A stretch of DNA of 64,000 nt, from assembly GCA_965205505.1 (NCBI GenBank), contig CBDBHB010000008.1:832001-896000 (forward strand), written 5' to 3'. Both the position numbers and the translations under genes were made by a program. Of this stretch, positions 5,737 through 53,582 are shown piece after piece. The notes beneath the pieces are model-generated. The model searched no databases, had not been told where the DNA came from, and saw only the letters and a list, made by a program, of their open reading frames with translations. Position 1 is the stretch's first letter. Each line of letters begins with the position of its first letter. The stretch is from Acidobacteriota bacterium (lineage in GTDB: Bacteria > Acidobacteriota > UBA890 > WLXD01).

Positions 5737-6342
5737 CTACTGCGTCAGCTGCCGGAGCTGATCGATCACGTCCGCGGCCGGTGGACGCAGGCGGTAGTTG
5801 GTCTCGACAAACAGGTACCGGACGATCCCGTCAACGTCGAGGATGACCACGGCCGGGTGCGGGATCAGGCTGTCACTATCAGCTTCGTTGAGCAGGCCCC
5901 ATGCCTTGATAGCCTCGGCATCAGGGTCGAGCAAGAAGGGGAACTCGAAACCCTCCTCCTTACGATAGGCCCGCAGCTTGTCGGTGTCGTCGTTGGCAAT
6001 GGCCCAAAACTCGGCCCCGGTAGCCCGGATGTCGTCCATGGCTTCATGCAGCTGCACGAGCTGCTCGCGGCAGAACGGTCACCAGGTGCCCCGGAAGAAA
6101 AGCAGCATCAGCGGGCGCTCGCCGCGGGCCGCCGCCAGGTCATAGACGTCGCCGTCGGTGGATTCGAGCGAGAACGTCGAGGGCGGCAGCTGGCCGACCT
6201 CGAGCAGCGTCTCGTGCGGCGGCCCTAGCGCCAGTCGATCGGCATCCTGAGCGTGGGCACTGGCTGGCCCCACGAGGGTAAACAATAGCGGCAACGCCAG
6301 ACGCGCCCATGACAACGGTGGCAACGAGAAGCGACCTTTCAC
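5737..6342 (-). CDS. AhpC/TSA (peroxiredoxin-like) selenoprotein with a UxxC motif (TGA at 6079-6081)
   Basis: ORFs 6079..6342 and 5737..6057 are in one frame: FFRGTW-TGA-PFCREQL. TGA sits at the first Cys position of the usual CxxC. Confidence 0.88.
6052..6078 (-). promoter_or_regulatory. Candidate SECIS hairpin
   Basis: After the TGA: CTGC-C-GCGAG-CAG-CTCGT-GCAG. The upper stem starts at +11 and the loop G is at +18. Confidence 0.6.
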
Positions 6343-38739: not shown

Positions 38740-40395
38740 CTACGACGCCTTGGGAAGCTCCCCCAACGCCGCTGGTTGGTGCAGGGACCACCAATCCTCC
38801 GCCTCGCTCGGGCCCCATCGGGCGCCGTCAAGCGGCACCTGGGACAGAGCCTCGGACAACTCGCGCATGCTCTCGAATCGGTCGGCTGGGTTCTTTTCGA
38901 GGCACTTGAGAATCGCTGCATCTAGCGACGCGGGAATCAGCAGCTCGGTACGAGTCGAGGGTGCCGCCGGCTGCGTCTTGACGTGATCGACCACCATCGC
39001 CATGGGTGTGGGCTGATCGAACACCAGCTTGCCCGTTACGAGCCAGTACGCGACACACCCGAGGGCGTAGACGTCGGTGGCGGGACCGATCAGCTCGGCC
39101 TGCATCGCCAGCTCGGGCGGCATGTAGGCGGGGGTGCCAGTGGTCAGCCCGTCGACAGTCAGCTGGGTGTCTCCGTGGGCGTCCTGCTGCTTCACCAGGC
39201 CGAAATCGAGGACCTTGACGAAATCGTGCTCGCCGCCCAGGCGACAAGCGTGGATGTTCGCCGGCTTGATATCGCGATGCACCAGGCCGCGGGTATGAGC
39301 CTCGGCCAACGATGCACACGCCTGCCGCAACAGGTAGATGGCGCGCCCCGGCGGCAACGGCCCGAAGCGCTTGACCAAGGTCTCCAGATCGAGACCCTCC
39401 AGATACTCCATTACGTAGTAGAACACCCCTTCGTTGGTAATGCCGAAGTCGTAGATCTCGACGGTGTTGGGAGATCGAAGCCCTGCCGTCGCCCGCGCCT
39501 CGCGCTCGAAGCGGCGGGTCGCCATCTTCGTCGAGTCCTTGTCGCCGTCGCTCAAGAGCTCGGGACGAATGATCTTGATTGCGGCCGGTCGGGCCAGAGT
39601 CTGATGCTGTGCCAACCACACCTCACCCATGCCGCCCTGGCCGATGCGCTCCTGCAGGTCGTAGGTGTTCGCCGAGCGCGCGTCGATGGCCACCGACCGG
39701 AAGCGATCGATGAGTAGCACGCCCAGAATCGATACGATCACGGCGATCGACAGTAGGAACACAACGTCGGTGATCTTGGAGGCAGTCAGCACCGACTGTG
39801 TCAGCAACCGCACTTCCGGATGCCGAGCGCGCACCAGCACTCCGAGCGCGATCGGCGCCGCCCCCAGCGGCACGATGACGGCGGCGGCGCGAGCCCACGT
39901 GTTGGGAACGAAGATCGCGTAGGTCGCCATCAACAACACGAATGAAAGGGCCGTCAGGTTCCATCGCGACAGCACCAGCCCGGCGTCACCAGCAGCGGCC
40001 TCCCGCAACAACTGACCATGATCGAGCACCAGAATGTGCGCGCTCACGGCCACGAACAACACGATCTCTAGCGCGCGCAAGCGGCCTAGCGAAAGATCAC
40101 TCGCGGCAAACAGCAGGATGGTGCCCACGGCGACCAACGCGATGGTGCCGATACGGACCACCCCCACGCCTGCCTGATTGAGGAAAAGATCACGCAACAG
40201 GAACACCGTTGTCCCGCCCAACATGATCGCTGCGAGAGGCCGCAGCAACATGTGCAGGATCACGCGTGTCGCCGGGTCCCCCGACGCGACTGCATCCAGC
40301 AGTCCGGTCTCTGGTCAGAACTTGTGCTTGCAACGATCCGCAGGCGCACGGCCGGCGAGCGAAGGGGCTGTGGGATTCGTGTGCTGTTCAGTCAT
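38740..40395 (-). CDS. Membrane-bound Hanks-type Ser/Thr kinase; candidate selenoprotein (TGA codon 27 at 40315-40317)
   Basis: GQGGMGEV, AIK, HRDIKPAN, DFG and GTPAYM motifs with about six TM segments. An in-frame ATG at 40395 has a GCAGGT RBS and reads through one TGA. The kinase call is firm; Sec read-through is inferred. Confidence 0.8.
40288..40314 (-). promoter_or_regulatory. Candidate SECIS hairpin of the kinase
   Basis: TGA + 10 nt + GACTGC-TGGAT-GCAGTC; perfect 6-bp stem, loop G at +18. Confidence 0.62.
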
Positions 40396-40522
40396 GATCA
40401 ACCTGCCCGATTGGCGTCGGGGTCATTCTCGCACGGACTAGGTATGCCTCTCGGCACCGTATCTTGCCCGTGTAACGACGAGCGGGCATACAACTCGAAG
40501 TTTGCTGCCGACGAGCACGAGG

Positions 40523-41080
40523 TTACTCGGCGCCTGGTGTCACCGCACCAAGGCGTCCGACGATCGAGCCGTCCTCGCCCAACAATCGCAGCTCCGGCGT
40601 TCCGTCGTCCAAGCCCAGTACGATCCGGAGTCGGCCGGCACGATCGAACAGCTCCAGCCGCGGCCCCGCAGACGGAACACTCAGCATCGCTTCGACATCG
40701 CCGGACCGACCCATCAACGCTACCATCGGACCGAATCGATCGCTCACCGTGATCGCGCCACGTGGGCGACCGGCAGCGTCGTGGACGCGTAGTCGTCGAG
40801 CACTCGTGGCGCTCACCTCGGAGGGCACCGGCCGGAGCGCCGGCAACGGTGCAGTAGAGACCGGCGGCTGTACGCGCTGACGCACTTGCCGCTGCAGATC
40901 GTCGATCATCCGCTGCAGGCGACTGGTCTCGTAGTCGAGGCGGAACCGGAGATTGCCGACCTCCTGTCTCAGCTGCATTGTCGCTGCCGATTCCTGCACA
41001 CGGTTGGCAAGCTCTGCGTACAACACTACGAACGGCAACGAGATCAGGCTGAGGGTAAACAAACGGGATACGGTGACCAT
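40523..41080 (-). CDS. Hypothetical membrane-anchored coiled-coil protein with C-terminal beta repeats
   Basis: N-terminal TM segment, coiled coil, repeated P.L.L.D..G..R units. Confidence 0.65.
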   Translation of the reverse strand: MVTVSRLFTLSLISLPFVVLYAELANRVQESAATMQLRQEVGNLRFRLDYETSRLQRMIDDLQRQVRQRVQPPVSTAPLPALRPVPSEVSATSARRLRVHDAAGRPRGAITVSDRFGPMVALMGRSGDVEAMLSVPSAGPRLELFDRAGRLRIVLGLDDGTPELRLLGEDGSIVGRLGAVTPGAE

Positions 41081-41170
41081 CGGCGCGCTCCGTCGAATCG
41101 GGGATGGCGTGTGTCGTTGAGCGTCGTCGGAGTTTAGCCGCCGACGACAATCAAGCTCTGCAAGGCGACT

Positions 41171-41830
41171 ATGATCGACGACACTGTGGACATTGACTTC
41201 GAACGCGCGCGCCGCCAACTTGTCGACACACTACGGAAACAGGGCATCCAGGATCGCCGCGCCCTCGAGGCGATCGCCCGCGTTCCACGCCACGAGTTCG
41301 TACAGTCGCGCTTCGAGCGCGAGGCGTACGGTAACTTCCCACTGCCGCTCGGGCACGGGCAAACCATCTCGCAGCCATACATCGTTGCGCTGATGACGGA
41401 GCTGCTCGACGCTTCACCTGGCGACCGCATCCTCGAGGTCGGTACCGGCAGCGGCTACCAGACGGCAGTGCTAGCGGAGCTCGGGTGCGAAGTCTACACG
41501 GTCGAGATCATCGAAGAGCTCGCCGATCGAGCGGCTGAAGTTCTGTCGCGGCTCGGTTACCGGAGCGTGCACCAGCTCGTCGGCGACGGAGCCCTCGGAT
41601 GGCCGGAGCACGCGCCCTTCGATGGGCTGATTGTCACCGCAGCTCCCTCCGTAGTACCCGAAGCCCTCATCGAGCAGGTCGGCGCCGGCAACCTGGTGGT
41701 GCCGGTGGGCGCGTCAGGGGCCACACAGAAGCTCGTACGGCTCGAGAAAGACCGCTCGGGGCATCTCATTCGACACGACATCGCCCCGGTGCGCTTCGTG
41801 CCGCTGGTCGGCCGGCCGCCGCATGACTAG
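41171..41830 (+). CDS. pcm: Protein-L-isoaspartate O-methyltransferase
   Basis: VPRHEFV, GQTISQPY, LEVGTGSGY, GWPEHAPFD, VRFVPL. Confidence 0.93.
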   Translation: MIDDTVDIDFERARRQLVDTLRKQGIQDRRALEAIARVPRHEFVQSRFEREAYGNFPLPLGHGQTISQPYIVALMTELLDASPGDRILEVGTGSGYQTAVLAELGCEVYTVEIIEELADRAAEVLSRLGYRSVHQLVGDGALGWPEHAPFDGLIVTAAPSVVPEALIEQVGAGNLVVPVGASGATQKLVRLEKDRSGHLIRHDIAPVRFVPLVGRPPHD

Positions 41831-52583: not shown

Positions 52584-53582
52584 TCAGTCGGCCTTGGCGA
52601 GCAGTGCTGCAATCTCACGTCGCACATCGGCCTCGTCGCCACGCTCGTAGCCATAGTGCCGCCAAACGATGCGTCCGTCTTGATCCAGCAGGTAGTTCGT
52701 CGGCGTTGCGATGACGCCATACGAGCCCGCCGAAATCTCCTGTCCGGGATCGAACGCCGCCGGAATGGAGAAGCCGTTGTCGTCGTAGAACTGCCGCGTC
52801 CGCTCGACATCGTTGGAAACATCGATGGCGATGATCGCCAGTCCCTGAGGCGACAGGTCGCGGTAGATGGCGTCCAGGTGAGGGAACTCCTCACGGCACG
52901 CCAGTCAGGTCGGCGACCAGAAGTTCAGTAGCGTCGCCCCGTGAAGCGCCGAGCGTAACTCAACCTCCGGCTGCTGGAGCCCGGGCAGCGAGAAGTCCGG
53001 CGCGGTCAACGCGACGAGATCGCGCCCTTGCCGGAACCACTCCTCGAAACTCGCCGCGCTTGAAGAATCGATCGAGTACGCCCAGCGCAGCGCCTGGTCG
53101 AGTTGCTCGCTGCGATCAGCAACGCTGGCGCGCAGTAGCATCGTGATGCCACCTGCCAGGTCCCCAGCGCTGGCCATCGCCAGCCCCAACTGCAACGGAA
53201 GGGAGCTCTCGATCGGGATGCCCAGAAGGTCTGTTCGGGTGAGCATCAGCGCCCGTTCGAAGGCACTCGCGGCTTCCTCGTTGTCGCCCACAGCGAGATG
53301 CGCTTCGCCCCTGAGCTCATGGACGCGACTAAACATCCTCGCCTCCGGAAACTCGTCGAGAAAGCCCTCTACCAACTCTAGGCGCTCACGGCCATTCACC
53401 GCGGCAATGCGCTCGAGGCGGCGCAGCGCGACCGCGTTGGTCAGCGGTACCCGACTCGCCGAACCCAGGCGAGTGAAGGCCCTGCCGGCCTCTCCGTCGG
53501 TGTCCAGCGGCCGCATCAGATCCCAGTTCTGACAGGCCGAGACGACGATGGCGGCAAGGGCGAACACAATCAGACGGCGCAC
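52584..53582 (-). CDS. TPR + TlpA/thioredoxin-like lipoprotein selenoprotein with a UxxC motif (TGA at 52905-52907)
   Basis: Lipobox VSAC; APDFSL...LLNFWSPT-TGA-LACREEFPHL...YGVIATPTNYLLDQDGRI continues in frame to the TGA at 52584. Confidence 0.88.
52870..52904 (-). promoter_or_regulatory. Candidate SECIS hairpin of the TlpA-like gene
   Basis: TGA + 10 nt + GTGAGG-AGTTC-CCTCAC; lower stem TGGCGT/ACGCCA; loop G at +18. Confidence 0.72.

Follow-up and report, generated by a model that had tools for sequence, protein, structure and literature searches.

A candidate selenocysteine-containing membrane Ser/Thr kinase family in Acidobacteriota

We analyzed a 64,000-nucleotide stretch of DNA from an uncultured Acidobacteriota bacterium (contig CBDBHB010000008.1 of assembly GCA_965205505.1; "the window" below is this whole stretch) and found that a gene on its reverse strand, at 38740-40395, specifies a candidate membrane-bound Hanks-type Ser/Thr kinase with a single in-frame TGA at codon 27. 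It is very likely, as predicted from comparison with related genomes, that this UGA is decoded as selenocysteine (Sec, U), and we consider it highly probable that the UGA is so decoded and that the kinase belongs to a selenoprotein family. The four features by which bacterial selenoprotein genes are usually recognized computationally are all present: conservation on both sides of the UGA, homologues with Cys in its place, the Sec machinery and a hairpin resembling a selenocysteine insertion sequence (SECIS), which, judged from the alignments, is confined to the UGA forms and covaries. The bacterial selenoproteins described so far are almost all oxidoreductases; if the Sec of this kinase acts as a sensor, selenoproteins would extend from redox catalysis into signal transduction.

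Under translation table 11, the kinase is called as an open reading frame (ORF) of 507 amino acids (38740-40263, reverse strand) with a GTG start (40261-40263, codon 45 of the longer frame). The initial annotation of this DNA, made from the sequence alone, had traced the frame upstream of this GTG, through one TGA, to an ATG with a GCAGGT ribosome binding site, and had noted a Cys five residues before the TGA; all of these elements are present in the sequence. The kinase frame is open through the single TGA (40315-40317) up to an ATG at 40393-40395, and GCAGGT, a weak Shine-Dalgarno-like element, occupies 40401-40406, 5 bases before the ATG on the same strand. Translated with TGA as U, the coding sequence has 551 codons and ends at a TAG stop (38740-38742), and the 551-residue product begins MTEQHTNPTAPSLAGRAPADRCKHKF-U-PETGLLDAVASGDPATRV. 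The leader that precedes the TGA (codons 1-26, 40318-40395) contains the conserved ADRCKH[KR]F, in which Cys22 is five residues ahead of the TGA (MTEQHTNPTAPSLAGRAPADRCKHKF-U-PETGLLD).

Both the leader and the residues that follow the TGA are conserved in the window's genus, as ADRCKH[KR]F-U-PETGLL[DE]AV; four orthologues keep the leader and show synonymous changes in it. Two of these orthologues, L024 and L025, are co-linear with the kinase over its full length (93% and 80% identity). The Shine-Dalgarno-like element is partly kept (GGCAGGT in L025, GGCAAGT in L024 and GGCAGAA in L026), and the GTG at codon 45 is not conserved, being replaced by GTA in L024 and by TAC in L025.

TGA (putative Sec) or Cys at one codon of the kinase family

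To define the family, we searched 40 related genomes and the window's own genome in six frames with the first 240 residues of the kinase, and found matches in 22 of the 41 genomes, many of them containing exactly one TGA. The frames were read through in 70 stretches (68 loci and two paralogues from the window's own genome), of which 38 carry an N-terminal motif [F/L/..]-[U/C]-[P/R]-x-x-G, with TGA in 25 (24 distinct places) and Cys in 13. A further 27 stretches are paralogues without the motif, and five gave no match by our script. Eight additional TGA forms were found later, for a total of 32 distinct TGA-form genes, and in all 32 the TGA lies at the same codon, within [F/L]-U-P-[E/D/Q/S]-x-G. 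Examples of the TGA forms are KHKF-U-PETGLL, HHF-U-PDNGMV, ALF-U-PESGLL, FHL-U-PETGLS, LQL-U-PDTGLL and CWF-U-PETGLL; the Cys forms include HKF-C-PQDGML, QKF-C-PDSGMM and NF-C-PYGGMV. An alignment of 34 N-terminal regions has just two columns without any variation, that of U/C and that of Gly31; Pro28 is nearly invariant. Thus, at the aligned codon, within a conserved extension, these homologues have TGA or Cys and never the Arg, Trp or Gly that the initial annotation had named as the residues that would speak against Sec.

The frame upstream of the TGA is likewise kept across the family. In each of the 25 TGA loci of the first set, the frame stays open for 26 codons or more ahead of the TGA and contains a start codon there; in at least 22 of them, an ATG lies 20-42 codons upstream. 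In L046, the ATG is 50 codons upstream, with GTGs at 31 and 23, and in L035 and L047 the read-through translations have a Met about 35 residues upstream. The initial annotation had also proposed a Cys-Sec pair (C-x4-U) at the N terminus; this spacing does not hold as a feature of the family, since a Cys occurs within six residues upstream of the Sec in only 17 of the 32 Sec forms (two to four residues in between: C-x2-U, C-x3-U or C-x4-U).

The Sec form is widespread in the window's class and extends beyond it. The genome collection contains just 26 members of this class, and 18 of them have one or more TGA forms. Of 401 genomes sampled from the phylum, 375 are outside the class; 9 of these have matches, seven of which carry TGA. 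All seven show the motif (RRF-U-P[SEQ]AGEVPG or CKF-U-PEAGII) and come from other Acidobacteriota families; another TGA form, L100, is in a record labelled Candidatus Eiseniibacteriota. Retention of the predicted Sec trait spans several paralogous clades and no fewer than three families. Among 1.84 billion proteins, the first 240 residues matched 226 representatives at E ≤ 0.001, and F-C-[PR]-x-x-G occurs in 8 among the 150 of these 226 that were listed.

A natural exchange of TGA and Cys codons is seen at a single locus. Across the family, a syntenic locus consists of PCMT, a conserved 231-codon ORF, the kinase and a 299-amino-acid membrane protein, and the codon in question is TGA in genera g1 and g2 and Cys in genera g3 and g4. 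A quick, 44-row maximum-likelihood tree with no established root, from which 26 of the 70 rows were dropped for having fewer than 420 residues, groups 20 U forms and two C forms in one clade (98 by the SH-like approximate likelihood ratio test, SH-aLRT). The two C forms of this clade (genus g3) adjoin the window's genus, and the U form L030 branches outside the two; seven other C forms, like the 15 paralogues that lack the motif, are in other parts of the tree. The simplest reading of these relationships would be an old Sec state with one Sec-to-Cys replacement. This natural Sec/Cys pair would offer a test of what Sec adds to a switch.

Two other sets of sequences were noted alongside. The paralogue at C9:1792040-1792717 (reverse strand) of the window's genome (G000) and L068 have a variant Cys motif, NF-C-RHFGMGG, in which Arg replaces Pro, and they have no hairpin. 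A group of homologues (L112, L113, L115, L119, L120, L122, L128, L130 and L139, labelled Isosphaeraceae, Planctomycetaceae or Planctomycetota, with L120 labelled Myxococcota) read SF[VLTA]P[DE]xR[VIF][IVM] at what seems, from an alignment judged by eye, to be the corresponding place, and may thus have a similar peptide without the Cys.

The hairpin after the UGA and the Sec machinery

As described in the initial annotation, the TGA is followed by 10 nt and then by a perfect 6-bp stem with a 5-nt loop. This SECIS-like hairpin, GACUGC-UGGAU-GCAGUC, lies at 40288-40304 on the reverse strand (arms GACTGC at 40299-40304 and GCAGTC at 40288-40293; loop TGGAT at 40294-40298), has an energy of -8.6 kcal/mol, and its loop starts 16 nt after the UGA. 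Bacterial SECIS (bSECIS) elements are diverse, and the passages of PMC13188914 that deal with them give as constraints a loop of 3-9 nt, a stem of 4-16 bp, a G in the first two loop positions, a spacing of 16-37 nt and an energy of at most -7.5 kcal/mol. The window hairpin, with its 5-nt loop UGGAU, 6 bp, 16-nt spacing and energy, lies within all of them, as do the hairpins of 29 of the 32 TGA forms. No such hairpin occurs in any of the 13 Cys forms, and of 3000 random TGAs, 270 (9%) are followed by one.

The family hairpin has a common position and loop. Most TGA forms encode U-P-x-x-G-[LMVE]-[LSV]-P-G-x-G, with the 5' arm of the hairpin at bases 17-24 from the U of the UGA, and the usual loop is GGUC, GGUCN or GGGUC; the GGUC(N) loop starts approximately 21 nt after the UGA, in a stronger hairpin than that of the window. 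Examples are UGCUGCCC-GGUC-GGGCAGCG, UGCUUCCC-GGUC-GGGAAGCG, UGUUGCCC-GGUCU-GGGCGACG, GGUGUCCG-GGU-CGGACACC and GGUGCCCG-GUU-CGGGCACC. When pairing was scored in fixed columns, the TGA forms outside the window's genus (n = 18) paired at 7.5 of 8 positions, compared to 3.4 of 8 in the Cys forms (n = 13), and the poor pairing of the Cys forms holds although some of them encode similar residues. In 21 sequences aligned in the register of the five-base loop, 91.8% of the cells are paired, compared to 38-50% with the partner slid. Four of the seven stem pairs change on both sides, and the covariation score was reached by none of 500 shuffles, a control that ignores relatedness; a subset of 15 sequences gave the same picture of pairing and covariation.

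In the window's genus, the peptide is GLL[DE]AV, the hairpin begins four to five bases earlier, and the loop is UGGAU, UGGAC or UGGAA. The stem is kept in four of four orthologues, one of which (L026) has a single A-to-G change that results in a G-U pair. We interpret this hairpin, from the alignment, as a remodelled version of the family hairpin. Covariation, which the initial annotation had offered as a check, is borne out across the family by the four pairs that change on both sides, but not within the window's own genus. If the assignment is right, the family adds a SECIS variant that is clear and covaries, from a phylum that has been little studied, and this variant could serve as training material for selenoprotein predictors.

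Since Sec insertion requires dedicated factors, whose presence the initial annotation had made a condition of its proposal, we looked for them in the window's genome (5.98 Mb, 64% G+C, 96% complete) and found all of them above curated cut-offs: tRNA-Sec (68 bits), selB (355 bits), selD (323 bits) and selA. The selA search gave two matches of identical score (516.6 bits), at C6:10376-11734 (forward strand) and C6:191379-192737 (reverse strand), and this inverted pair on one contig reflects either a genuine duplication or a repeat introduced in assembly. The genome also has a formate dehydrogenase alpha gene (FdhA; 1323 bits) with one in-frame TGA. A second molybdopterin-oxidoreductase or Fdh-like gene, at C9:1541902-1543956 (forward strand), has an in-frame TGA as well (CAAT-U-HAPTVAG). 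The hairpins of the two genes, GGUGGCC-AGUCU-GGCCGCC in FdhA and GUGGCC-GGUCU-GGUCAC in the C9 gene, are at a distance similar to that in the kinase family, and the GGUC(N) loop of most kinase TGA forms matches these Fdh genes of the genome itself. The TGA codon is not reassigned in this genome, because more long frames end with it (1267 of 2436) than with any other stop.

Five of five further Sec-form genomes tested have selA and tRNA-Sec. In one genome, G012, selB was not found at E 1e-60. Loss of the Sec trait in G012 was considered as the cause of a deletion in its family member (L043, see below) and was rejected, because G012 has selA and tRNA-Sec.

The TGA itself is reproduced in independent data, as the initial annotation had wished to see in the reads. 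The window stretch is present in 20 runs of 11 studies, and the contigs of three runs from three studies show no difference at 40315-40317, although one of these runs is possibly the source of the assembly.

Kinase architecture, rival explanations and possible roles of Sec

The protein combines a membrane domain with a C-terminal kinase domain. The kinase domain (residues 245-509; 38869-39663, reverse strand) matches Pfam PF00069 at E 2.3e-38 (132.5 bits, compared to a gathering cut-off of 31.7), and K274, E299, H373-R374-D375, N380, D397-F398-G399 and P427-E428 are invariant in 21 full-length sequences; thus, the sequence predicts a Hanks-type Ser/Thr kinase with all catalytic residues intact. 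The membrane domain (residues 40-242; 39670-40278, reverse strand) is modelled by AlphaFold2, run with the 21-sequence alignment (mean predicted local distance difference test score, pLDDT, 82.5), as six long helices (40-72, 79-97, 103-134, 138-162, 167-199 and 205-242), with the conserved motifs SLxxLRxxE and AYxxFVPNxWxRA on its cytoplasmic face; the first 240 residues, including this domain, match no Pfam or NCBIfam family. In the model, residues 1-22 are disordered (pLDDT < 50), and two short strands follow, at 24-27 and 31-33, with the Sec at the end of the first. The number of membrane helices, six, would place the N terminus with its Sec motif on the same, cytoplasmic, side as the kinase domain, so the Sec motif is predicted to form a short β-hairpin on the cytoplasmic side.

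Comparison with known proteins indicates that the decoding mechanism is the ordinary bacterial one and that the kinase domain is that of an ordinary Hanks kinase, but that the protein is not a PASTA kinase. Foldseek returned kinase domains only, the best being the PknB kinase domain (5u94, target TM-score 0.88), whose fold and catalytic motifs the candidate shares. In contrast to PknB, in which the kinase is N-terminal to a single helix, the candidate has its kinase C-terminal to a six-helix membrane domain, lacks PASTA repeats and carries the Sec/Cys motif at its N terminus; a search with the Stk1/PknB PASTA kinase model (NCBIfam NF033483) gave 243 bits, below the cut-off of 450, and covered the kinase part only, with no PASTA repeats. 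The gene resembles those of bacterial selenoproteins such as FdhA, which depend on SelB and a SECIS within the ORF, in its in-frame UGA, its homologues with Cys in the same column, its stem-loop just 3' of the UGA and the G in the first two loop positions, the family loop GGUCU being that of the genome's Fdh. It differs from FdhA in that the host protein is a signalling kinase rather than an oxidoreductase, with the Sec in a short N-terminal motif outside the catalytic domain.

Links between Sec, thiols and kinases are known in other forms. SelO is a different family, in which Sec is near the C terminus. The candidate, in contrast, has its Sec at the N terminus, and a Pfam scan of it at E up to 0.01 gave only the kinase-type families Pkinase, PK_Tyr_Ser-Thr and APH, with no SelO-family domain. 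The rubredoxin-like module of mycobacterial PknG and the modules of ArcB and RegB are Cys-based redox modules on kinases. The idea of a thiol-based sensor attached to a kinase is shared with PknG, but those proteins use Cys, metal-bound or in a disulfide, whereas the candidate has Sec in a hairpin of approximately 10 residues rather than in a domain. With HgcA that has an N-terminal CU extension, as presented in part of the preprint 10.1101/2022.07.06.499078, the kinase shares a Sec motif hidden upstream of the predicted start and database entries that are truncated; HgcA, however, is a corrinoid methyltransferase with a CU motif, and the kinase has F-U-P. The only reported connection of Sec with a kinase-like fold that we found is SelO, described as a selenoprotein with a protein-kinase-like fold in a passage of PMC3281104; a bacterial SelO-like selenoprotein appears in the portion of deep-Sep that lists families. 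The selenoprotein reviews and databases that we consulted cover over 100 families; apart from PSTK, no protein kinase is named in their main texts. Literature searches found no Sec-containing Hanks kinase, and none is described in the portions of the literature on which we drew (PMC13188914, PMC13326102, PMC12013277, PMC9312934, PMC2398784 and the preprint cited above), although supplementary family lists, for example Table S2 of BSepDB, could hold one.

Several observations weigh against Sec decoding. The window hairpin is minimal, with 6 bp and a 16-nt spacing at the lower limit, and 8.3% of 6000 random TGAs in the genome have a stem with six or more Watson-Crick pairs within the same distance range; taken alone, this hairpin is within the chance background (8-9%), and it is the comparison with relatives that raises it well above chance. 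Three Sec forms (L038, L026 and L097) miss the strict SECIS constraints. The window's genus supplies only four orthologues and no compensatory pair, and three of its four hairpins lie within the constraints, with L026 just short at -7.3 kcal/mol. In 40100-40500, no curated Rfam covariance model, those of SECIS included, was matched up to E = 10. The folding energy of the 48 nt after the codon, compared to synonymous recodings, gave a weak signal, with no gene below 0.05 and one at 0.05; the mean z was -0.50 in TGA forms and +0.52 in Cys forms (Mann-Whitney P = 0.008, a value overstated by relatedness). Homologues of the membrane-kinase architecture are numerous in Planctomycetota, and those examined have neither Cys nor Sec at the position. 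Some Sec-form members of the family are broken, by frameshifts in L026 (genome G002) and L075 (G007), by an early stop in L057 (G020), and in L043 (G012) by an internal deletion that leaves the DFG region fused to the membrane domain; such copies may be decaying, or they may reflect errors of assembly. In the kinase gene itself, the contigs of two of the three DNA runs have an extra C in the homopolymer at 40160-40165, which the third does not have, and which, if real, would break the frame after about codon 78. The five-C version in the window keeps the kinase frame co-linear with the orthologues, and the difference could be an assembly error or real strain variation. Finally, in the metatranscriptome run X20, two short contigs lie on the body of the kinase and none over the UGA.

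The broken members, which are from metagenome-assembled genomes, and the difference in homopolymer length are what one would cite for the view that the TGA is an assembly error or the gene a decaying pseudogene, but we find this view hardly credible: independent assemblies place a TGA at this very codon in 32 distinct genes, the contigs of three runs do not differ there, in most Sec forms a single in-frame TGA precedes an intact frame of 527-572 codons, and the catalytic residues of the kinase are all invariant. It is also very improbable that the UGA is the true stop of a 26-codon leader ORF, with the kinase starting downstream at a GTG or ATG and the hairpin exerting translational or transcriptional control. 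Gene callers do start the protein downstream, such that public protein sets hold only N-terminally truncated versions of the kinase (503 and 465 amino acids); TGA is the commonest stop in this genome, and the Shine-Dalgarno-like element before the upstream ATG is weak. However, paralogues with only 25-35% identity conserve, in frame, the 17 codons that separate the TGA from the GTG (PETGLL, PDTGLL, PESGLL), and these codons are continuous with the Cys-containing ORFs; the downstream GTG is absent in L024 and L025; and no Cys form has the hairpin, though the same control element would be needed there. If Sec decoding is correct, the annotation of this kinase family, whose database entries are without the N terminus, would be corrected.

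With Sec decoding as the preferred reading, we propose that the UGA at codon 27 of this inner-membrane kinase would be decoded by SelB and tRNA-Sec under the direction of the hairpin just downstream. We consider it possible, at somewhat less than an even chance, that the kinase senses through this highly reactive Sec or Cys, which would switch it in response to redox state, an electrophile or a thiophilic ligand; the redox version, specifically, we put forward tentatively. The residue might be oxidized, or might form a selenenylsulfide or diselenide with a nearby Cys, where present, or with a second protomer; alternatively, it might bind a thiophilic ligand. Either event could shift the N-terminal hairpin against the membrane domain or the kinase and thereby switch kinase output. 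For example, stress by oxidants or electrophiles could lead to a selenenylsulfide, or to a diselenide between protomers, that switches on dimerization-dependent autophosphorylation. The protein might then be the first selenium-based sensor kinase, with the Sec of its cytoplasmic N-terminal hairpin as the sensing atom of a transmembrane Ser/Thr kinase, a reading to which we give somewhat less than an even chance. If a signalling kinase does conserve Sec in a motif without catalytic function, selenium chemistry would be seen to serve sensing or regulation as well. Three points weigh against such a switch: the N-terminal β-hairpin block is modelled with a pLDDT of only about 74; no other Cys is specific to the U/C forms (C360, C384, C447 and C498 are non-specific); and no fixed resolving partner is evident, because the nearby upstream Cys is present in only about half of the Sec forms.

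The chemistry of the residue could also differ from that of a redox switch. If Sec is inserted mainly as a ligand of a soft metal or metalloid, for example Cu(I), Hg(II), Zn or As(III), the kinase would report metal status rather than redox state. The Cys two to four residues upstream in 17 of 32 Sec forms is an arrangement suited to chelation, the motif is in a short β-hairpin on the cytoplasmic side of the AlphaFold2 model, and a high metal affinity of Sec is stated in a passage of PMC13640652. Nevertheless, we think this role unlikely, as 15 of the 32 Sec forms have no nearby Cys, no second conserved ligand is specific to the U/C forms, and the genes that neighbor the kinase (PCMT, the 231-codon ORF and pilin-like genes) include no metal-handling and no redox partner genes. 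Alternatively, selection might act on recoding itself, such that the early UGA ties kinase synthesis to selenium and the chemistry of the residue is secondary. Failed decoding at codon 27 would leave only a 26-residue peptide, and the lineage is rich in selenoprotein genes, with two UxxC redoxins in the window and two Fdh genes in the genome; but this explanation, which we consider distinctly improbable, leaves unexplained both the Cys at the aligned residue in 13 homologues and the conserved flanking F-x-P-x-x-G, and the motif survived the single replacement of Sec by Cys at the syntenic locus. In the sensing-residue reading that we prefer, the dependence of full-length protein synthesis on selenium supply would be a side effect of the position of the UGA.

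Neighboring ORF and other candidate selenoprotein genes in the window

The 231-codon ORF of the syntenic locus is found at 40523-41218 in the window, directly upstream of the kinase and on the same (reverse) strand. It has no Pfam match, keeps its position in genera g1, g2, g3 (G006 only) and g4 with 36-84% identity, and may be co-transcribed with the kinase.

Two further genes of the window, both on the reverse strand, contain an in-frame TGA. The gene at 5737-6342 encodes a secreted AhpC/TSA-Redoxin protein with a TGA (6079-6081) at the active site (FRGTW-U-PFC) and a Pfam AhpC-TSA match that runs across the TGA (E 7.8e-25); it is a second candidate selenoprotein in the window. The gene at 52584-53582 encodes a lipoprotein-like protein with tetratricopeptide repeats (TPR) and a thioredoxin fold (TlpA-like, UxxC), with a TGA at 52905-52907 (FWSPT-U-LAC) and a Pfam AhpC-TSA match at E 2.5e-17. 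The initial annotation had likened the hairpin of this gene to that of the kinase, and the geometry is indeed the same: the UGA is followed by 10 nt and then by GUGAGG-GAGUU-CCUCAC.

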